A DNA stretch of 44,324 bases from a phage, in NCBI GenBank assembly GCA_026204955.1, contig GCA_026204955.1_4545.1; one strand, written 5' to 3'. The position numbers and the translations under genes are program-made. The stretch's first letter is position 1, and the number at the start of each line of letters is the position of its first letter. The notes below the pieces were generated by a model. That model made no database searches and was not told the DNA's origin. It saw only the letters and a program-made list of their open reading frames with translations. Of this stretch, positions 5,482-44,312 are shown piece by piece.

Positions 5482-8400
5482 CGATTATCTACGACGTCAC
5501 TGGGCATAAAGGCGGCGGCGGCAAACAGCACACCCCGCAGGAAACGCCGGACAGCCTGCATTCCCTGGCTAAAATCCGCATCTTGCTTGCACTGGGTGAG
5601 GGGGAATTCGAAAGTATTACCAGCGCAAGCGAATTGCGGCAGCGTGTATACCTGGACGGCACGCCGATCCAGAACGCAGACCTGTCAGAAAACTTCCCCG
5701 GCGCGCGCGTGGAGTTCCGCCCGGGCACACAGCACCAGGATGTGATCCACGGATTTTCAGCGGTAGAAAGCGAGCAATCCGTCGGTGTAAAACTGGAAAA
5801 CGGCACGCCGTGGGTGCGCCAGATTAATGACACCAGTCTTGACGCCGTGCGAATTCGCATCGGCATTCCAGCTTTGTACACTAACGAGGACAATGGCGAC
5901 CTGGTTGGCGGGCGCATCGACTACAAAATCGTTGTGTATACGGATAACGCCGACCCGCGTGAGTTCAGATTCGCCGCCGTTGGTAAAACAATGTCGCTAT
6001 ATGAGCGCGACCACCGCATCGAATTACCGCCGAACGTGAATACCGGCTGGCGAGTGGAGGTGCACCGCATAACGGCAGACTCCACATCGGCGAAAGTGGT
6101 GAACGATATTCAGGTGCAATCAATCACTGAGATTATCGACGCCCGCCTGCGCTACCCGCTAACCGCGCTGTTGTTCGTGGAGTTCGACGCTAAAGCGTTC
6201 CAGAACATCCCGCGCGTATCCATTAAGTGCAAAGGCCGCAAAGTGCTGGTGCCAAACAACTATGACCCGATTAATCATACCTATTCGGGCGACTGGGATG
6301 GCACGTTTAAACGCGCCTGGACGGACAACCCTGCGTGGCACTGGTACGATATTTGTATTACAGAGCGCTTCGGCCTCGGTCGGCGTATCAAACCGCAAAT
6401 GTTAAACCGGTACGCGCTCTACCAGATTGCGCAGCGCTGCGATCAGTTGGTCAGCGACGGCAACGGCGGGCAAGAAATCCGCTTTAAGAATGATATGTAC
6501 ATTCAGTCACAGACGGATGCCTGGACCGTGCTTAAGGATTTAGCCGCTATCTTTGCCGGTATGACCTGGTGGGGCAACCAGATGTTGAATATCGTAAGTG
6601 ACCAGCCGGTCGCAGCGGTATCGCACACTATCACCAACGCCTCGGTTATTGATGGCAGATTCGACTACGCGTCAGGGAGCCAGAAAACTCGCTATTCCAC
6701 GTTCGCGGTAGCATACGGCAACCCGAAGAACCACTATGAAGACGCCATCGCAACGGGCCAGCGTGTCGAACTGGTGCGCCGCCATAAAATCAACCGCCTT
6801 GATATAACGGCGATCGGCTGTACGCGTGAGTCAGAAGCGCAACGACGTGGGCACTGGGCGCTAATCTCCAACCAGCTTGACCAGCAAGTTAGCTTTAAGG
6901 TTGGCATGGAGGGACTTTTCTTTATTCCGGGTAGCGTAGTCGCGATCGCCGATACAAACATTTCTGGCGGCTTCGAGACACGCGGCGGTCGCCTGTTGTC
7001 GGACCCTGGCACGCGTACCGTGCTTAACACGGACAGCGAAATCACGTTCCGCCCAGGTGATAAATTCCTGGTACGCACCAATAGCGGTAATGTGGAGACT
7101 CGCGAGATCGCCAGCGTCAACGGCAACAAGGTTACGCTAAAAACCGCACTGGACGCCGACCCGATTCCTGATCAGCCGTTTTGCGTCGATGGCAACGATA
7201 TCCAGTTGCAGAAGTTCCGCATCACCGACCTGGAATATGACGACTCTACCAGCACTTTTTCAGTGCGCGGGATCGAGTACAACGATAGCAAATATGATGC
7301 CGTTGATAATGGCGCTCGCCTTGATCCGGGCATCTTTACTCAAGTGCCCGACGGTGTAATGAAGGGGCCAGAGTCCGTAACCATCACCCCGTCGCAGATT
7401 TCATCGCAAGGCCAGCTAATCACCAACGTGGATATTGTATTCCCTCCGGTGAAGGACGCCGTGGTGTATGAAATCCAGTGGCGACGTACCAGCTTGCAGA
7501 ATATGGAAATCCAGTGGGGTAACGACTGGGTTAACATCCCCCGCACGGCATCGAACGGCGCGCACATCCCTAACGTGTTCTCCGGTAACTACCAGGCACG
7601 CGTCCGCGCAATCGGTATGGGCGAGATTTCATCCCCGTGGGTGTCGTCTGCCATCACGCCGATAGAAGGTCGTCTCGGCGGGCTTAACGCGCCTATCATC
7701 ACCAACGCGATTTCGGGCCTCCACCAAATTTTGTGGAAGTGGAACCACAACAACGCCGCGACGGATATTTCGTACACCGAGCTTGAAGTGCGCAAGACCG
7801 GTGAAACGGAATGGAAATTTCTTACCAACGTCCCATACCCAGGGTCAGATTATGCGCAAACGTCGCTGGAGTTCGGGATCTATCAGCAGTTGCGCGCCCG
7901 CGTAGCAGATAAAATCGGCAACCTGTCAGACTGGTCAGCCCCGTTTGAAGGCCAGGTGAGTGACAAAGTCGACGAATACATGAAGGGGCTGGATGACGAG
8001 TTCTTGACTTCCGAAGATGGCAAACACTTCCAGGAAGCGATCGACACCATGCCGCAAGGCATTTACGAGGCTATGCTGACCGACGCACAGCAGCTATTCA
8101 ACGCCCGCGCCGAGTACAAAGGGATTTACGCAGAAATAACGGTCGCGTATAACGTGGCGGCGGACGCGCATAAAGCCGTAGCGCAACTGGAAACGTTGAT
8201 CGGCACGCGCCTTGATGACGCTGAGGCATCAATCCACACGTTGCAGACTGCGCAAAGCACACATGAACAAGCGTTCGCCCAGTACCAGCAAACTGTTGCC
8301 GCTAAGTTTTCGGAACAGGAAGCCGCCATCCAGCAGGTACAAACGGCAACGGCGGACGTAGCTGGCGCGCTGGCGGAGTATAAGACCCAGGTCGCGGCAC

Positions 8401-25470: not shown

Positions 25471-27735
25471 ATGAGCTTGATTAAATTCGCTGTAACAAAA
25501 CCCGCTAAAAAAGGCGAAAAAGCCAGGGCGGAAAACTTCCAGATGACGACCGATGAGTTTTTCGAATTTATCAAAGATGCGAAAGAAATCTCCTCGGTGC
25601 ATATCAACAAGACGGAAGATAAAGCCGAGTATGCGCGCCGCAAGCGTAAGGCCGATGGCATCGTGGCGTATACCAGTGACGGATTGCGCCGCAAGACCAG
25701 TGCCGTGGACCGCTCGATCCTGTTCTTCGATATTGACCGCACCGACACCCGCACCCTGCGCCGCTGCCGTAGGGCGTTCATCGACGCGGGTCTGGAACAC
25801 GTATTTCACACCACCACCGGCGACCGCCACCCGCTGAAGAGCGGCACGCGTTGCGCCCGTTTCCTGGTGCTCACTGACAAGCCTGTACCGGCTGAAGACC
25901 TGGGCCGCGTCCAGTATGCACTATTACACCAACTGGGCCTGTCAGATGTGGACTTCGATGATTGTACGAAAGACACAAACCGCCTGATGTACCTGCCACA
26001 CCAGCAGTCCGTTATTAAGTGCCATTATGGCAAGCGCGCCAATGTGCGTCGTCTACTACGTCGGGCGGACAAGCTGGGGGTGGAAAAAGAGGAAGTACGC
26101 CGCGAGCTTACCAAGGGCGACGACGCAGTGGCAGACGGCATTCTGGACTGGTGCTTCCAGGCCGGATTCGAGGAGTTATCTTCTGGTCGCGGTTATGAAG
26201 TGCCGTGCCCGAACGAACATCTGCACAGCGGCGAAGGGTCGACGGCTATCATGGTCAAGGATGGCGAGATCCGTTTCAAGTGTATGCACACCGGCAACGA
26301 GTGTTGCTCGGAGCTAAATAGACACCAGCACCTTGCGCTACGTCTCATCGGGATACCGGACCACCTGAACGTCGAGCCGCACAACATGTCACGTAAGCAA
26401 ATCTCCGCCATCCTCCCGGGGCTGGACGACGAGGAAGTCGAATCCTTATATGAACATATTGTTGATGCGGTTGGCGACGGCGAAGAATACGGCGTGTGCA
26501 CCGATGCGGATCTGGATAACGAGCCGGTTGCGCTGTTCAGTAAGCACGACCCGATTATCGAGGGGTTGGTTAACTTTAAATCAACCTGGTATATGGCGGG
26601 TGAGTCGAACATCGGTAAATCGTTCTACGTGCTGGGGCAAATGGGTGCGGTTGCCGCGGGGATTCCGTTCGGTGGCGCGAAGGTCGTCCAGTCGCACTGC
26701 TTTTATTTCGACGCGGAAGGCGGCGAAGCCTCCAACCAGCGTAAGGAAGCCCTGCAGATCAAATATGAGCACGACCTGGACAAGCTGCACATTATCGATC
26801 TGCAATCACGCGGCTGGGATATCACCAGCAAATCAGGCTTGCGCGAAGTTATCAGCTTTATCAATCGCACAGCTAACGGGGAGCCGGTTGGCCTGGTGGC
26901 ATTCGACTCACTCAACCAGACTGTTGCGTTGCGGTCCGCCGATTCTAAACCGTTCGACGAGAACAACGCCAGCGATATGGGTGAAGTGGTCAAAGCGCTG
27001 AAGGCCATTGCGGAAAATACAGGCGGCAGTGCGGGCGTCATCCACCACCCGGCAAAAGGTGCAAACGGCAGCAGATCTCCCCGTGGGTCCGGCGCGCTGC
27101 ATGGCGCTGTCGATTCTGCGTTCTTCCTGGAGCAACCGGACGACAATCAGCCGGGCCAATTGAACCTGTATCACGAAAAGGCACGTAACGGCATCAAGCA
27201 AGCGCCGCGCGGCTTCGTCCTGCTCAAGTGCAAGGTTAAGGTGGATCTCCGCAAGTCCGAAGCGTTCGAATCACACCAGTCCACCAGCACCGGGCCTGAC
27301 TTCGGCGACGTGGTTGCCGGTTGGGACGTCAAGCCAATTGCATCCACGCCACGCGACGAGACTCTTTATCTCGTACCGGTCGCCCTGGCACCGTTCGCCA
27401 TCGAACAGGCGAAGGCCGCGGGCAAGGCCGCAGTTAAGGATGAGAACGCCGCAGGACCGCGCAACGAAAAAGAGAAAGTGCTTTATGCGGCGCTGGAAAA
27501 ACTGATGGAAGATAACCCGGACCATACCGGATTCAGTAAATCGGCAATCGTCCGCCAGGCGGGATTGGCAAAAGGTGGCACATCGACGAAGGCAATCGAC
27601 GATATGATCGAGCGCGGCGTACTCGGTTTTTATACAGACCCGCACACCGGGGCCATCTACGGGTCGTCGAATATCGTCATCAAAACGAATATACCCATCA
27701 CGCTTTCGGCGACCGATGACGACTTAAAAGATTAA
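25471..27735 (+). CDS. primase/helicase (AEP primase-polymerase-like N-terminus + P-loop ATPase C-terminus)
   Basis: 754 aa; FFDIDR resembles AEP motif I (hhhDhD); Cys/His cluster CPNEHLH...CMHTGNEC; Walker A GESNIGKS and Walker B-like LVAFDSLNQ. Confidence 0.6.
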   Translation: MSLIKFAVTKPAKKGEKARAENFQMTTDEFFEFIKDAKEISSVHINKTEDKAEYARRKRKADGIVAYTSDGLRRKTSAVDRSILFFDIDRTDTRTLRRCRRAFIDAGLEHVFHTTTGDRHPLKSGTRCARFLVLTDKPVPAEDLGRVQYALLHQLGLSDVDFDDCTKDTNRLMYLPHQQSVIKCHYGKRANVRRLLRRADKLGVEKEEVRRELTKGDDAVADGILDWCFQAGFEELSSGRGYEVPCPNEHLHSGEGSTAIMVKDGEIRFKCMHTGNECCSELNRHQHLALRLIGIPDHLNVEPHNMSRKQISAILPGLDDEEVESLYEHIVDAVGDGEEYGVCTDADLDNEPVALFSKHDPIIEGLVNFKSTWYMAGESNIGKSFYVLGQMGAVAAGIPFGGAKVVQSHCFYFDAEGGEASNQRKEALQIKYEHDLDKLHIIDLQSRGWDITSKSGLREVISFINRTANGEPVGLVAFDSLNQTVALRSADSKPFDENNASDMGEVVKALKAIAENTGGSAGVIHHPAKGANGSRSPRGSGALHGAVDSAFFLEQPDDNQPGQLNLYHEKARNGIKQAPRGFVLLKCKVKVDLRKSEAFESHQSTSTGPDFGDVVAGWDVKPIASTPRDETLYLVPVALAPFAIEQAKAAGKAAVKDENAAGPRNEKEKVLYAALEKLMEDNPDHTGFSKSAIVRQAGLAKGGTSTKAIDDMIERGVLGFYTDPHTGAIYGSSNIVIKTNIPITLSATDDDLKD

Positions 27736-27841: not shown

Positions 27842-27944
27842 GCGGGACAAAAAGCGGGACAAACAAGGGGCGGGACAAAGCGGGATAGCACCCCAGTCCC
27901 GCCCCGGATGACGCGGCCTGGAGAGGAGCGGGACAAGCGGGACA
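27842..27944. repeat. iteron array A: GCGGGACA repeats (ori-like region downstream of primase/helicase)
   Basis: GCGGGACA at 27842, 27854, 27870, 27928, 27937; variant GCGGGATA at 27880; inverted GTCCCGCC at 27896-27903. Confidence 0.6.
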
Positions 27945-31150: not shown

Positions 31151-31558
31151 ATGTTAAAAAGTATTCTTGATCATAATGCGGACGCGCTCGACGCGTTGGC
31201 TAAAACGGACGACGCGGAAGCGCGTCGTATCATTGCGGACACCATCAGCCATGCGGGGGTGTTTGGCGCAAGCCTTCCGGGTCCGAAACCCGAGGTAAAA
31301 GTGACAAGCGCCACGGTAACTGTAGCTCCCGAGGCAGTTACAATCGGCACCCCGGCGAAGGCTACTGCGGCGGTACAACCGGCAGGGGCGACCAATAAAT
31401 CCGGCGTGTGGGTCAGCGGGTCGCCGACCATTGCCACCGTGGATGCTTCCGGCAATATCACGGGTAAAGCACCTGGATCTGTCGATATTATTTGGGTGGC
31501 TAAGGATGGAAGCGGGGTGTCGGGCCGCAAAACGGTAACTGTGGCAAACGCAGAGTAA
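31151..31558 (+). CDS. Ig-like (Big_2-type) domain protein
   Basis: 135 aa; C-terminal about 80 aa Thr/Val/Ala-rich beta-strand pattern typical of bacterial Ig-like group 2 domains; followed by terminator. Confidence 0.4.
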   Translation: MLKSILDHNADALDALAKTDDAEARRIIADTISHAGVFGASLPGPKPEVKVTSATVTVAPEAVTIGTPAKATAAVQPAGATNKSGVWVSGSPTIATVDASGNITGKAPGSVDIIWVAKDGSGVSGRKTVTVANAE

Positions 31559-31564
31559 TGAGCA

Positions 31565-31589
31565 AGCCCGCCGTATTGGCGGGCTTTTT
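31565..31589 (+). terminator. rho-independent terminator after lysis module
   Basis: AGCCCGCC-gtattg-GCGGGCT followed by TTTTT. Confidence 0.6.
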
Positions 31590-31676
31590 ATTGTTCGACC
31601 TGCGACCAATTAATAGCCCATACTGCGGTCGCCGTGGTATATTGACCGCGGACAATCTGAATCAGGAAGATATGCA

Positions 31677-32819
31677 ATGCACCCGCAAACCAAAATCACC
31701 GACGAGCAATTGATCGCCGAGTTGCAATCCGGCACTACCGCGAAAGAGATTGCGAAGAAGTACGGCCTTTCCCTACGAAACGTCTACATGCGCAAAGCCC
31801 GCCTGTCGAAGAAAGGTATTGGTCACGGTAACGATGCCGTAATCCGTAAGCGCGTTGCCGATGGCTTCGGCGTTAAACGCGTATCCGCCCTGGTGCGCGG
31901 AAATGGCGAAGAGGTCATGTCGTGGGTTATCACTGAGCAGGACAAAGAGCGCCAGCTTGAAGCAATGCGCGCCGTTGTCGAGGGTATGAACAGCGAAATC
32001 ACACCGGCAGCACCAGTAAGCGCCCCACCAGTCCCGATCCAGGCACTTGACCTACTCAACCTGTACACAGTGTCAGACTTCCACCTGGGCATGTTGGCAT
32101 GGGGCGAGGAGACTGGCGAGGATTGGGATATGGCAATCGCCGAAGACCTGTTTTACCGCTGGTTTGTCGAAGCCTTCGCACGCGCACCGGACGCAGGCAC
32201 TGCCGTAATTAATATCCTCGGTGATATGGCGCACTTTGATAGCCTTGATGCCGTCACCCCAGCCAGCGGACACATACTGGACGCGGATACCCGCTACCAG
32301 AAACTGGTCCGCTACATGATTCGCATGGTGCGCAACGTGGTGGAACTGGCGCTGCAAAAACACCACAAAGTCAAACTGCTAATCGTCCAGGGTAATCATG
32401 ACGAGTCTGGCATGATTTGGCTGGCTGAAATGTTCAATACCCTGTATGAGAACGAGCCGCGCGTCGATGTGGACACGTCACCGGACGTATACAAGATGGT
32501 GCAGCACGGCAAGACCACGCTGTTTTTCCACCACGGGCACAAAGCACGCTTTGACGCAATCGAGACGGTTATGATTGCTAAGTTCAGGAAAGCATTTGGC
32601 GAAAGCGAGTACAGCTACGCGCATGTAGGCCACTTGCACCACCAGAAGATTGTTGAATCCCACAACATGATTGTTGAACAACACCGGACACTAGCAGCGA
32701 AAGACGCATATGCAAGCCGCGGCGGTTGGATGAGCGGTCGCAGCGCAAACGTCATCACCTATAGCGCCAACTACGGCGAAGTAGCGCGCTTAACCATTAG
32801 CCCGGAAATGTTGAAGTAA
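31677..32819 (+). CDS. HTH domain fused to calcineurin-like metallophosphoesterase (Mre11/SbcD-like or phosphatase)
   Basis: 380 aa; N-terminal HTH (TTAKEIAKKYGLSLRNVYMRKARL); phosphoesterase motifs SDFHLG (D-x-H), GDMAH (GD), QGNHDE (GNHD/E), HHGHK (GH-x-H). Confidence 0.55.
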   Translation: MHPQTKITDEQLIAELQSGTTAKEIAKKYGLSLRNVYMRKARLSKKGIGHGNDAVIRKRVADGFGVKRVSALVRGNGEEVMSWVITEQDKERQLEAMRAVVEGMNSEITPAAPVSAPPVPIQALDLLNLYTVSDFHLGMLAWGEETGEDWDMAIAEDLFYRWFVEAFARAPDAGTAVINILGDMAHFDSLDAVTPASGHILDADTRYQKLVRYMIRMVRNVVELALQKHHKVKLLIVQGNHDESGMIWLAEMFNTLYENEPRVDVDTSPDVYKMVQHGKTTLFFHHGHKARFDAIETVMIAKFRKAFGESEYSYAHVGHLHHQKIVESHNMIVEQHRTLAAKDAYASRGGWMSGRSANVITYSANYGEVARLTISPEMLK

Positions 32820-32850
32820 CGGCAGCCAGTAAGCCACCCAGCCTGCCGAT

Positions 32851-32879
32851 TTGGTGGGCTTTTTTGTGCCTGTTATAAT
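32851..32879 (+). promoter_or_regulatory. extended -10 promoter upstream of terminase genes
   Basis: TGtTATAAT (32871-32879) with -35-like TTGGTG (32851-32856) at 17-nt spacing; overlaps hairpin/T-tract after the upstream gene. Confidence 0.4.
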
Positions 32880-32949
32880 CCACCTTAGATGGCAGGGCCG
32901 TCTCCTATGTTGCCGATGGTCGGCGCATATGAACAAAAGGGCTTATATC

Positions 32950-33501
32950 ATGGCAGAAATCAAAGTTAAGGGCCGACGCGCCAAACTGGACGGACGAGTA
33001 GCAGTAACCCCGCGCCGTAAACCAGGCGAGCAAACCGAGCATACCAATCTCGGACCTGAAATAGAGTACGGAAAGCGCCGTAAAGGCGGCAAATGTGGAC
33101 GCCCTACTGACTACCGATCCGTTTACTGCGACCAGCTTCGCCGCTATTTTGCCGACGCCGACGCATGGCAGGTCAACTACTCCGATAAAGGCGCTGCGCA
33201 AGTCATCCCCCGCCACAAGATGCCGACTCTCGGTCGCTTTGCTGCGGATATTGGGGTTGGCATCGCTTGCCTGTACCGCTGGGCGCGCGCACATGAGGAG
33301 TTCGCCGAGGCGATGGCTGACGCTATGGAGCTACAGAAAACTTTCCTGATGGAAGCTGGCGGCGTTACCATAGCGGCGGGATTCGCTACGTTCCTGCTTA
33401 AAGCCAACCACGGCGTCCGCGACGATATTCCGCTGGATGATGACGAAGATGATAACGGCGACGTCGTTGTGGAGCCTACCGGCAAAGGCCAGGGTGATTA
33501 A
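32950..33501 (+). CDS. terminase small subunit (putative)
   Basis: Preferred ATG 32950 within track ORF 32851-33501; 183 aa, basic N-terminus, HTH-like LGRFAADIGVGIACLYRWA, acidic C-terminus; immediately upstream of terminase large subunit. Confidence 0.5.
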   Translation: MAEIKVKGRRAKLDGRVAVTPRRKPGEQTEHTNLGPEIEYGKRRKGGKCGRPTDYRSVYCDQLRRYFADADAWQVNYSDKGAAQVIPRHKMPTLGRFAADIGVGIACLYRWARAHEEFAEAMADAMELQKTFLMEAGGVTIAAGFATFLLKANHGVRDDIPLDDDEDDNGDVVVEPTGKGQGD

Positions 33502-34886
33502 TGCGTAACTATGCGGCAGAACATCGCGCCCTTGAACGAGCGATCGCAAAGCGAAACCGACCGCCGCGCCCGACACGCGTTGCGCAGGCAGTCCGCCTTT
33601 ACCAGCCTGATTGTCTTCCGCACCAGGTGGAACTACTGCGGGACACTAAGACTAAAATCCTCGGTCTGTGTTCCGGCTTCGGTGGTGGTAAGTCATGGGT
33701 TGCGGCACGTAAGGTCATCCAGCTTCTGACACTGAACCCTGGTCATGACGGCATCGTGACCGAGCCGACTATCCCACTCCTGGTTAAAATCATGTATCCT
33801 GAACTGGAGAAGGCATTCGACGAGGCAGGCTTCCGGTGGAAGTTCAACAAGCAGGACAAGATTTATAGCGTGCTGGTGAAAGGCAAATGGACGCGCGTTA
33901 TTTGTGAGTCAATGGAGAACTATACCCGCCTTATCGGTGTTAACGCCGCGTGGATTGTTGCCGACGAGTTCGACACCACGAAGCAAGACGTCGCAATGGC
34001 GGCTTATCACAAATTGCTCGGTCGTCTGCGTGCAGGACTTGTCCGCCAGTTCGTCATCGTGTCCACGCCGGAAGGCTTCCGGGCGATGTATCAAATTTTC
34101 GAAGTGGAGAAGGATAGCCAAAAGCGCCTGATCCGTGCGAAGACTACCGATAACCACCACTTACCGGCAGACTTTATCGACACGCTGCGCAGTCAGTACC
34201 CGGCTAACCTGATCGATGCGTACCTGAACGGCCTGTTTGTCAACCTTACGTCGGGCGCGGTATACAAGATGTTCAACCGTGAGGAGAACGCCAGCACCGA
34301 GGAAGTGCAACCGGATGACACGCTCATTATCGGTATGGACTTTAACGTCACGAAAATGGCTGCGGTCGTGTACGTCAGACGGCAGCGTACCACCGAAAAC
34401 AAGGAGTTCCGCGACGAGATCCACGCAGTGGATGAGTTTGTGGACCTGTTTGACACCCCGGCTATGATTGAGGCGATCGAAGAGCGCTACCCCGATCATT
34501 GTGCTGCCGGTCGGGTCGTCGTTTACCCGGATAGCAGCGGCAAGTCTCGCAAGACTGTCAACGCATCGTCGTCTGATATCGCGCAACTGGAAGACGCGGG
34601 CTTCGAGGTGGAATACGACAGCGTTAACCCGCCTGTGAAAGACCGATTAATCGCGATGAATACGATGATGTGCAACTCGAAGGGCGTGCGCCAGTATTTT
34701 GTCAACCTGGATAAATGCCCTACACTAGCGAAATGTCTGGAACAGCAGGTTTACGACCTGAAGAAAGGCGAGCCGGATAAAACCGCCGGTGTGGACCACA
34801 TGAACGATGCCGCGGGCTATCCAATTGCGCACCTGTTCCCAGTGATTCGTCCGATCGCCGTTGTTCCAACTGTAGACTTCTACTAA
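33501..34886 (+). CDS. terminase large subunit
   Basis: 461 aa; Walker A GLCSGFGGGKS, Walker B-like IVADEFD, acidic nuclease-domain residues in C-terminal half; followed by portal. Confidence 0.75.
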   Translation: MRNYAAEHRALERAIAKRNRPPRPTRVAQAVRLYQPDCLPHQVELLRDTKTKILGLCSGFGGGKSWVAARKVIQLLTLNPGHDGIVTEPTIPLLVKIMYPELEKAFDEAGFRWKFNKQDKIYSVLVKGKWTRVICESMENYTRLIGVNAAWIVADEFDTTKQDVAMAAYHKLLGRLRAGLVRQFVIVSTPEGFRAMYQIFEVEKDSQKRLIRAKTTDNHHLPADFIDTLRSQYPANLIDAYLNGLFVNLTSGAVYKMFNREENASTEEVQPDDTLIIGMDFNVTKMAAVVYVRRQRTTENKEFRDEIHAVDEFVDLFDTPAMIEAIEERYPDHCAAGRVVVYPDSSGKSRKTVNASSSDIAQLEDAGFEVEYDSVNPPVKDRLIAMNTMMCNSKGVRQYFVNLDKCPTLAKCLEQQVYDLKKGEPDKTAGVDHMNDAAGYPIAHLFPVIRPIAVVPTVDFY

Positions 34887-44046: not shown

Positions 44047-44312
44047 GCGGGACAGGCGGGACGTCCCCGTTTCGTCCCGCTTGTCCCGCCCCTGTAAAAC
44101 TGCATACTTACTCACTTTATTTGCTTAAATTAAAAGCGGGACAGGCGGGACGTCCCGGTCCGACACCCCCTGAAAAGTGCTTACTTATGCATTTTTAGTG
44201 CATAAAACAAACGGGACAAAAAGCGGGACAGACCAGGGGCGGGACAAATCGGGACGTCCCGCCGTCCCCATCAGTGTTGCCGGGGGTTTCAGCCGATCGG
44301 GACAGCGGGACA
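44047..44312. repeat. iteron array B: GCGGGACA / GGGACGTCCC repeats, paralogous to array A
   Basis: GCGGGACA at 44047, 44136, 44223, 44239, 44305 plus variants; palindromes GGGACGTCCC at 44058, 44147, 44251; inverted TGTCCCGCC at 44082-44090; block 44205-44324 aligns with 27830-27950. Confidence 0.6.

Follow-up and report, generated by a model that had tools for sequence, protein, structure and literature searches.

A helix-turn-helix metallophosphoesterase of Dhillonvirus and T1-like phages as a candidate host-DNA-degrading nuclease

The 380-residue protein encoded at positions 31,677 to 32,819 of the phage DNA analysed here (the window, 44,324 nucleotides) joins a helix-turn-helix (HTH) to a metallophosphoesterase (MPE) domain. 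It could plausibly be, though this reading is held tentatively, an HTH-tethered two-metal DNA nuclease that needs no Rad50 partner and breaks down the host chromosome for nucleotide salvage. Under the proposed mechanism the protein would be a DNA nuclease that works alone with two metals (Mn2+/Mg2+) and belongs with Mre11, SbcD and PolD-DP1 among the metallophosphoesterases. Its HTH, of LuxR/sigma-region-4 type, and its small beta-hairpin domain would keep it on DNA, and no Rad50/SbcC partner would take part. The gene would be expressed from its own terminator-bounded transcription unit, and its product would degrade the host chromosome, giving nucleotide salvage and host shutdown, a role that genetics has demonstrated for T5 A1, whose HTH plus MPE-like layout is similar. 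Three elements are inferred: that the protein is a nuclease, that it acts on DNA, and that its target is the host chromosome.

The open reading frame runs on the + strand from an ATG at 31,677 to a stop codon ending at 32,819, and a Shine-Dalgarno sequence, AGGAAG, can be read at 31,664–31,669 (+), 7 nt 5' of the ATG. It is a true gene rather than a chance ORF because it matches the phrog_704 profile over its full length (E = 4.8e-161, residues 5–380 on profile positions 2–390 of 390). The window is that of a Dhillonvirus. The protein itself is ordinary, being 97–99.5% identical to an already catalogued phage protein; its value lies in what its family might be. An N-terminal HTH together with all MPE motifs had been the core of the original prediction, and both are borne out by the ORF, the domain search, the AlphaFold model and the alignment of homologues; the domain search and structure prediction proposed there as a check (Pfam, AlphaFold) recovered HTH and MPE alike. 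The view that such a fusion is not a standard annotated phage function did not hold, as it corresponds to PHROG 704, 'DNA repair exonuclease', and the T1 copy is annotated as an SbcD-like exonuclease.

Homologues were found in 2,058 phage records, T1 ORF16 included, and clustering at 50% identity divides the family into about 4,700 groups. Several phage genera with therapeutic use have it among their core genes (Dhillonvirus, Jerseyvirus, Drexlerviridae and Webervirus). Among the profiles matched by the query were phrog_704, phrog_284 and others, with phrog_1745 absent. Labels across the family are discordant and include phosphoesterase, exonuclease, wHTH protein, oxidoreductase, DNA polymerase II and sigma-70 r4 protein. 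No published characterisation of any phrog_704 member was found in the literature. A phmmer search of the query against the PDB gave spurious repeat-protein matches only, NCBIfam gave nothing useful, and the PADLOC models, which cover defence systems only and are silent on anti-defence, gave no match at E up to 1. Several literature leads were set aside: the 'phosphatase' beside Ksap1 in the Ksap1/KpAvs2 work is a HAD acid-phosphatase gene other than the one studied here, the trigger of RAZR is the portal protein, the phosphoesterase of Metis is part of the defence system, and an escape-mutant atlas, a daunorubicin/BASEL study and a STAND-receptor preprint were irrelevant to this gene.

The protein consists of three parts, with an HTH of three helices at the N-terminus, the MPE at the C-terminus and a small beta-hairpin/helix domain between them. 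The HTH (31,698–31,814, +, residues about 8–46) is of the LuxR/GerE or sigma-70 region 4 type, as judged from the AlphaFold model and from Pfam matches of the family; its helices are modelled at residues 9–17, 22–29 and 33–45 with a pLDDT of about 90–94. On the query alone the Pfam match is weak (E about 0.01). The HTH is clear in other family members (Sigma70_r4_2, 1.5e-9; GerE, 2.4e-8), and GerE is also the best PDB sequence match of the family profile. The family-specific middle domain (31,857–31,997, +) is modelled as a beta-hairpin (residues 64–73 and 79–88) and a helix (90–107); G77 and W83 within it are almost invariant in an alignment of 73 sequences, and a low-confidence linker follows in the model as far as about residue 125. 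The catalytic domain occupies 32,052–32,816 (+, residues 126–380). The same three-part architecture recurs in 130–140 of 144 diverse PHROG 704 representatives, 130 of them matching the HTH profile and 135 the middle-domain profile.

Five ordered motifs on a beta-alpha-beta-alpha-beta sandwich fold place the C-terminal domain in the calcineurin-like metallophosphoesterase superfamily. They are motif I, D134-F-H136 in the context SDFHLG (32,076–32,084, +), invariant in both alignments; motif II, G182-D183-M-A-H186, or GDxxH (32,220–32,234, +), with G182 and D183 invariant and H186 at least 90% conserved; motif III, G239-N240-H241-D242 (32,391–32,402, +), with N240 and H241 invariant; motif IV, H285-H286-G287-H288 (32,529–32,540, +), with H286 invariant and the other three residues at least 90% conserved; and motif V, G318-H319-L-H321 (32,628–32,639, +), with G318 and H321 invariant and H319 at least 90% conserved. 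Nine residues (D134, H136, G182, D183, N240, H241, H286, G318 and H321) do not vary among 73 homologues with 33–97% identity to the query, nor in an alignment of seven phage lineages reaching down to 30% identity; the original prediction, which would have been undermined by motif residues that differed between homologues, is upheld in this respect. Nuclease-type MPEs such as Mre11 and SbcD carry DxHLG, GDxxH/D and GNHD. The query has SDFHLG, GDMAH and GNHD, of which SDFHLG and GDxxH are taken here to be SbcD/Mre11-like.

The lambda Ser/Thr phosphatase (NinI, of the PPP family) is a member of this superfamily as well and shares the five-motif scheme of metal ligands, which is the ground for seeing in the protein a lambda-PP/NinI-like protein phosphatase that rewires host signalling. 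That role, put forward in the original prediction, is the least credible of those considered, the PPP signatures GDxHG, GDxVDRG and GNHE and the details of the PPP fold being absent from the query. A small-molecule or end-healing enzyme, either a cyclic-nucleotide phosphodiesterase directed against defence messengers or a 2',3'-cyclic phosphodiesterase or 3'-phosphatase working with a PNKP-type neighbour, is improbable as well. A small-molecule enzyme would have no need of the DNA-binding HTH that is kept in the great majority of the representatives, the best structural matches are nucleases, and no cNMP-phosphodiesterase family model in NCBIfam was matched. The family also has conserved loops of its own in both alignments, TPASGHxLDxDxR and AKDAYAxRGGW. 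To our knowledge these have no counterpart in known phosphodiesterases, which again counts against this reading.

The invariance of the metal-binding and catalytic residues, which extends over thousands of clusters, further implies that catalysis is the selected function, which speaks against a quite improbable reading in which the sigma-region-4-like HTH is the main part and the MPE an accessory of a transcription regulator or RNA-polymerase modulator at the early-to-late switch. The Sigma70_r4_2 and GerE matches of the family N-termini would fit such a regulator, as would the repeated position of the gene at the boundary before lysis or packaging modules and the report that T5 A1 interacts with RNA polymerase and dampens pre-early transcription (10.64898/2026.04.02.716235). 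HTH cross-matches among Pfam families are, however, common and are no proof of binding to RNA polymerase.

The top structural matches of the model are nucleases, and its fold is nearest to Mre11/SbcD and to DP1. The kinship is distant: identity to Mre11/SbcD, and to T4 gp47, is about 13–18%, the Mre11 structural matches align just 178–193 residues, the SbcD/Mre11 family models of Pfam and NCBIfam did not match the query, and a profile-to-PDB match to Thermotoga maritima SbcD/Mre11 (E = 0.19) covers motifs I and II only. The small subunit DP1 of archaeal PolD, a 3'-5' proofreading exonuclease, is 13% identical. Its DP2 partner is absent in the phage, which, unlike the DP1 setting, has a family-A polymerase with a proofreading domain of its own; escape mutations have been described in that domain (10.1101/2022.08.27.505566).

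SbcCD and T4 gp46/47 process DNA ends and intermediates. By analogy, the protein could act on phage DNA while this replicates and forms concatemers, at ends, hairpins and stalled or recombination intermediates; we consider this unlikely, though it is a serious alternative. It would agree with the fold, with the near-universal presence of the gene in Dhillonvirus (some 155 records with at least 90% identity), with the FEN-like and YbcO nucleases that adjoin it in some lineages, and with the T1 locus, where the gene shares the orientation of the helicase–Holliday-junction-resolvase–Dam (replication) operon and stands at its end, ahead of the lysis genes. Against it, only about 60 residues, modelled as the last core strands, remain after motif V, so that there is neither a separate Mre11-type capping domain nor a Rad50-binding tail; the model has the N-terminal HTH and beta-hairpin domain instead. 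A Rad50/SbcC-type ATPase is likewise absent from the SECphi18 genome annotation and is no recurrent neighbour in 86 homologous loci. Dedicated recombination nucleases are, moreover, already encoded, RecE-like in T1 and DUF2800 in Dhillonvirus. A homologue also occurs in the temperate Rhizobium phage 16-3, an observation that fits action on phage DNA and counts against degradation of the host chromosome.

A terminase lies immediately downstream, as originally predicted (terS starting at 32,929 or 32,950, terL at 33,501–34,886), and the gene is thus the immediate 5' neighbour of terS/terL in this phage. This adjacency had suggested a sequence-directed nuclease making the initiating packaging cut with TerS and TerL, a role that is now very improbable. 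In the search for related loci, which used a seven-sequence alignment, terminase was found no more than two genes away in only one of 21 lineages, that of the Dhillonvirus loci. In T1 more than 15 kb separate the gene from terS/terL, even when counted across the record ends; in Jerseyvirus it lies between tail modules, and Webervirus, Vibrio phages and Pam1 likewise carry it at a distance from terminase. The adjacency is a trait of this phage genus and not evidence for a packaging role. TerL carries its own RNaseH-like nuclease domain (Terminase_6C), and TerS is P22-gp3/Sf6-like, hence of a pac/headful type of packaging. This nuclease domain, together with the terminator that separates the gene from terS, makes a packaging role unlikely.

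In this genus the gene sits among the late genes for lysis and packaging, which speaks against the host-degradation reading, yet it has a promoter-like box of its own. A terminator-like hairpin of 10 pairs (7 G-C) followed by TTTATTG ends the upstream lysis/Ig-like unit at 31,564–31,586 (+), and most Dhillonvirus relatives have an analogous hairpin just 5' of the gene despite swapped flanking sequence. Homology among the Dhillonvirus sequences restarts at 31,632, 3 bases 5' of a TG-extended -10 box, TGGTATATT (31,635–31,643, +), which by sequence match may serve as the promoter of the MPE gene; no -35 element was found for it. Directly 3' of the stop codon there is a second terminator-like hairpin with a T-run (32,840–32,860, +), kept in four of the five Dhillonvirus relatives examined. 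It is followed by a perfect TG-extended -10 box, TGTTATAAT (32,871–32,879, +), the sole perfect match in the window, conserved in relatives and promoter-like for terS/terL; in one relative extra DNA is inserted before terS. Genome-wide, 26 such boxes stand against 21 expected, which is no enrichment, and so attention is confined to the two local ones. As read from the sequence, the gene forms a terminator-bounded unit of its own, insulated transcriptionally from the terminase. The GCGGGACA arrays, to which the HTH had been suggested to bind, are real and lie about 4 kb and about 11 kb from the gene. No link between them and the HTH was found, and binding would be pure speculation.

Degradation of host DNA draws support from T1 and from gene neighbourhoods. 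The product of T1 ORF16 (CPTT1_064, 'exonuclease'), annotated as SbcD-like with 99% HHpred probability, is 46% identical to the query from end to end, the HTH included; there is no structural difference between the two and only the genomic position differs. Across other lineages the recurrent neighbours act in DNA and nucleotide metabolism: a PNKP-type HAD phosphatase (+1), a dNMP kinase (+2), a YbcO nuclease and a FEN-like exonuclease. That T1 destroys the host chromosome has been known since 1981, and mutants in the classical T1 gene 2.5 are defective in host degradation; degradation mutants of T1 are also better at generalised transduction. In T1 and TLS, host DNA is degraded and its nucleotides are reused, the responsible enzyme being stated as unidentified (PMC11447400); the HTH-MPE protein is a candidate for this enzyme in T1-like phages. 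Protection against the T1-like phage Bas12 is conferred by a sensor of the m6-dAMP that breakdown of host DNA sets free (10.64898/2026.01.15.699771). For Dhillonviruses, no evidence of host-DNA degradation was found. If the protein is indeed the T1 host-DNA degrader, an old question would be closed and the trigger of m6-dAMP-sensing immunity in siphophages would be explained.

A functional precedent for a host-DNA-degrading nuclease of this kind is T5 A1, a predicted metallophosphatase resembling double-strand-break-repair and proofreading nucleases, which genetic evidence has found to be necessary and sufficient for degradation of the host chromosome (10.64898/2026.04.02.716235). Its MPE motifs are co-linear with those of the HTH-MPE family, the NHDxxxSxWL and D..Y..G..W....ITY blocks are similar, and A1 relatives also have N-terminal HTHs. 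In hhalign, the catalytic halves of the two families align over 215 columns (score 38.4, E = 1e-4, probability 58%), with motifs III–V and the C-terminal block co-linear, compared with scores of 14–23 (at most 22.7) for reversed and shuffled controls. The link between the families is nevertheless weak, and the similarity of the catalytic halves may reflect only common superfamily membership. Full-length hhalign against the A1 family gave just a weak HTH match, and comparison of the HTH-MPE family HMM with the A1 sequence gave a negligible 2.8 bits. A1 matches phrog_1745 alone and is not a phrog_704 member; its profile has no MPE match in the PDB or Pfam, and therefore sequence alone cannot strengthen the link. 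With 556 aa, A1 also has a large extra middle region that is absent from the query, and it is needed for second-step DNA transfer, for which the HTH-MPE protein has no counterpart.

In a broader and more doubtful form, the proposal would make PHROG 704 the long-sought host-chromosome degrader of T1-like phages, of Dhillon-, Jersey- and Weberviruses and of numerous marine phages and phages of Gram-positive bacteria. It would then play the part of T5 A1, to which it might even be very distantly related. Through an exchangeable HTH, an Mre11-like nuclease that does not depend on Rad50 would reach host DNA, perhaps with some contact to RNA polymerase. The resulting dNMPs would be recycled by the products of the neighbouring phosphatase and dNMP-kinase genes, and would be sensed by m6-dAMP defences such as Metis and PUA-Cal-HAD. 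In T4, escape mutations in denA are known. This would be a second and far more widespread instance of the A1 strategy. A further likeness, by description, is to Gp48 of mycobacteriophage A10ZJ24, a toxic cluster A MPE with phosphodiesterase activity that disrupts the genomic DNA of its host (PMC12287305). Gp48 comes from another host and phage group and is MPE-only, no HTH fusion having been reported; like the query, it has all five MPE motifs.

The open reading frame at 31677-32819 on the plus strand (ATG to stop end), located as in the original prediction, encodes a protein of 380 aa and is preceded by an AGGAAG ribosome-binding site 7 nt upstream of the ATG. The translated sequence contains the five metallophosphoesterase (MPE) motifs in canonical order, namely D134-F-H136 (motif I), G182-D183 (II), G239-N240-H241-D242 (III), H285-H286-G287-H288 (IV) and G318-H319-L-H321 (V), all of which were invariant when six phage homologues of different lineages (30-74% identity) were aligned with it. 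In a larger alignment of 73 sequences, collected by exhaustive search of representatives and 33-97% identical to the query, D134, H136, G182, D183, N240, H241, H286, G318 and H321 were invariant, and H186, G239, D242, H285, G287, H288 and H319 were at least 90% conserved. The original prediction had tied its reading to the conservation of these residues, which are indeed kept across homologues. The homologue alignments also revealed three family-specific conserved blocks, TPASGHxLDxDxR after motif II, YENEPR, and AKDAYAxRGGW near the C-terminus; no obvious counterpart of any of them was found among known superfamily members.

The N-terminal helix-turn-helix (HTH) noted in the original prediction was likewise confirmed. 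It was marginal by Pfam in the query (E ~0.01) and unambiguous in family members (Sigma70_r4_2, 1.5e-9; GerE, 2.4e-8), GerE was the top PDB sequence match of the family profile, and the AlphaFold2 model places helices at residues 9-17, 22-29 and 33-45.

The window is a Dhillonvirus (HK578-like) coliphage genome with about 93% identity over the MPE-gene region to ZCEC10-12, welsh, SECphi18 and other phages, and the gene is a near-identical member of an already catalogued family, matching PHROG 704 "DNA repair exonuclease" over its full length (E=4.8e-161). Homologues were detected by tblastn in 2,058 of 50,697 phage records, with identities of 95-99% in Dhillonvirus, about 75% in Jerseyvirus and 43-47% in Drexlerviridae and Webervirus, and were also present in Vibrio, Ruegeria, Rhizobium 16-3, cyanophage Pam1 and Campylobacter phages. 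When 1.84 billion representatives were searched exhaustively with HMMER, 4,667 clusters were recovered at E <=1e-3 and 1,136 at <=1e-30. Of 144 diverse representatives whose catalytic domain is nearly complete, 140 extend at the N-terminus by 90 aa or more, 130 match the HTH profile and 135 match the middle-domain profile, so fusion of HTH and MPE is usual in this very large family rather than the oddity it was first taken to be. Existing names are inconsistent, including 'calcineurin-like phosphoesterase', 'DNA repair exonuclease', 'winged helix-turn-helix protein', 'metallophosphoesterase', 'transcriptional regulator', 'oxidoreductase', 'DNA polymerase II' and 'sigma-70 region 4 protein'. 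The coliphage T1 homologue, ORF16 (CPTT1_064; 46% identity, full length), is annotated as 'exonuclease', and its entry records an HHpred probability of 99% for E. coli SbcD.

The AlphaFold2 model (mean pLDDT 90.8) has three parts: the HTH (residues ~8-46), a beta-hairpin and helix of lower confidence (64-107) and the MPE core (126-380, pLDDT mostly >95). Structure matches were led by the PolD DP1 proofreading exonuclease (15.7), Thermotoga maritima Mre11 (15.1; also the top PDB match of Foldseek, E=2e-8) and S. aureus SbcD (14.8), followed by LpxH (13.7), MJ0936 (13.5), further Mre11/SbcD structures (12.5-13.5), Rv0805 (12.3) and the Ser/Thr protein phosphatase PP5 (9.1-9.3). As modelled, the protein is closest to nucleic-acid nucleases, by a margin too small to fix the substrate. 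With only 8-18% identity to any of these structures, the protein represents a family of its own in the superfamily. A viral structure library contained proteins of equal fold and size from Campylobacter, Roseobacter, Cellulophaga, Lactobacillus and Bacillus phages.

The gene order in the window is holins, endolysin, Ig-like protein, MPE gene, terS, terL and portal. Judged from sequence signals, the MPE gene is a predicted transcription unit of its own, with a terminator-like hairpin upstream (31564-31586), a promoter-like TG-extended -10 box, TGGTATATT, at 31635, and a second terminator-like hairpin after the stop codon (32840-32860). Just past the second hairpin and ahead of terS lies the sole perfect match in the window to the TG-extended -10 box TGTTATAAT (32871-32879), which suggests that transcription of the terminase and late structural genes begins at a host sigma-70 promoter lacking a -35 element. 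This layout, with both boxes and both hairpins, is kept in Dhillonvirus relatives. Homology amongst Dhillonvirus genomes breaks upstream of the MPE gene and picks up again at 31632, three bases short of its -10 box at 31635. The stretch at 31286-31631, comprising the C-terminal part of the Ig-like ORF (31151-31558) and the terminator, is swapped between relatives and looks like a recombination hot-spot or mosaic joint. One relative (L011, IMGVR_UViG_3300045988_011231) has about 210 bp of extra DNA (~5650-5858) inserted after the stop codon of the MPE gene and ahead of the terS promoter region.

A packaging-initiation nuclease was one of the roles originally proposed. In a survey of 86 loci from 21 lineages, with terminases recognised by phmmer using queries from only two TerL/TerS families, a terminase lay within two genes of the MPE gene only in the four Dhillonvirus loci, and this adjacency disappears outside Dhillonvirus. 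In T1 the MPE gene is the last of an operon encoding a helicase, a Holliday-junction resolvase and Dam; a terminator, an HNH gene and the lysis cassette come next, and terS/terL are over 15 kb away even when the distance is counted across the record ends. The MPE gene is found between Dam and lysis genes in Badaguanvirus and Webervirus (in the latter with a PNKP-type phosphatase and then a dNMP kinase downstream), between two tail modules and before an HNH gene in Jerseyvirus, ahead of HNH and endolysin genes in a Vibrio phage and Pam1, and in a nucleotide-metabolism block in phage 16-3, where a NinI-like phosphatase is encoded separately. The TerL of the window has Terminase_6N and an RNaseH-like Terminase_6C nuclease domain, so that packaging requires no extra nuclease, and its TerS resembles P22 gp3 and Sf6. 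Given the restricted adjacency, the terminator before terS and the nuclease domain of TerL, the packaging role finds no support.

The sequence GCGGGACA occurs 15 times in the window (2.1 expected), concentrated in two intergenic stretches, 27842-27944 downstream of the primase-helicase gene (25471-27735) and 44047-44312 at the window end. Both share a longer repeat unit, TGCATAAA...AGCGGGACAAAAAGCGGGACA...GGGGCGGGACAAA, with inverted GTCCCG copies, and 89 Dhillonvirus-like records contain the array region at about 87% conservation. The arrays probably serve as operators, as an origin or as binding sites for a regulator; no link between them and the HTH of the MPE protein was found.

Recurrent neighbours in the 86 loci were endolysin, HNH homing endonucleases, a YbcO nuclease, a FEN-like exonuclease, a dNMP kinase (at +2) and a HAD_PNKP phosphatase, the last at +1 in 10 of 11 cases. 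No Rad50/SbcC-like protein was recurrent in these loci or annotated in the SECphi18 genome. In four lineages the PNKP-type phosphatase (L004 5166-6232 and related loci; Pfam HAD_PNKP 4.5e-20) and the kinase directly follow the MPE gene, an arrangement that resembles the pairing of A1 with dmp in the pre-early region of T5.

The T5 'predicted metallo-phosphatase A1' is reported to be necessary and sufficient for host chromosome degradation, to share structural features with double-strand-break-repair and polymerase proofreading nucleases, and to interact with RNA polymerase (10.64898/2026.04.02.716235). A1 has MPE-like motifs co-linear with those of the MPE protein (GDIH, HD, SNHD, HGH and GHTH), and its blocks NHDxxxSxWL and D..Y..G..W....ITY resemble family-specific blocks of the MPE protein. 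In A1 relatives of 45-48% identity the T5-type N-terminus is replaced by assorted HTH domains (HTH_23, HTH_38, HTH_7 and CENP-B_N in P0343, P0345-P0347, P0373 and P0385), so in the A1 family, too, the DNA-binding module at the N-terminus appears to be exchangeable. Alignment of the catalytic halves of the two families by hhalign scored 38.4 (E=1e-4, 58% probability, 215 columns) against 14-23 for reversed and block-shuffled controls. Because HMM-to-sequence comparison of the MPE family with A1 was negative, the two belong to different PHROGs, and the A1 profile found no MPE in PDB or Pfam, we regard A1 as analogous in function and possibly very distantly related, but not as a PHROG 704 member.

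No experimental work on any PHROG 704 member was found in the literature. DNA degradation is suggested on three grounds: the relationship of fold and motifs to those of Mre11, SbcD and DP1; a DNA- and nucleotide-metabolism neighbourhood in most lineages, including enzymes that would recycle dNMPs; and precedents. Amongst the last, besides A1, both T1 and TLS break down the host chromosome and recycle its nucleotides, and the 2024 re-annotation of TLS states that the gene product behind this has yet to be identified (PMC11447400); a defence sensing m6-dAMP from host-DNA breakdown protects against the T1-like phage Bas12 (10.64898/2026.01.15.699771); and Gp48, an MPE of a mycobacteriophage, is active as a phosphodiesterase and disrupts the genomic DNA of the host (PMC12287305). 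The nuclease-like part of the original functional reading is thus reasonable, while its alternative of a host-signalling phosphatase, like packaging, is not supported. The best-supported mechanism is a predicted Rad50-independent two-metal nuclease, which the HTH would tether to DNA. Such an enzyme would degrade the host chromosome, the nucleotides being salvaged; we tentatively hold this to be the likeliest role, at somewhat short of an even chance. The main rival, an enzyme processing the phage's own replication or recombination intermediates, shares the premise that the substrate is (putatively) DNA and is considered rather unlikely. The MPE gene is a concrete and cheaply tested candidate for the enzyme with which T1-like phages break down host DNA.

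Free-standing HNH homing-endonuclease genes directly adjoin the MPE gene in T1 (L010 42028-42510), Jerseyvirus SeF1, a Vibrio phage and cyanophage Pam1 (L002 5116-5586, L006 5010-5519 and L007 5225-5941), and the gene appears in fragments in RDJL Phi1, JK06, phiJLA23 and Salmonella phage 36, which together suggest that it is a homing target or is sometimes disrupted.
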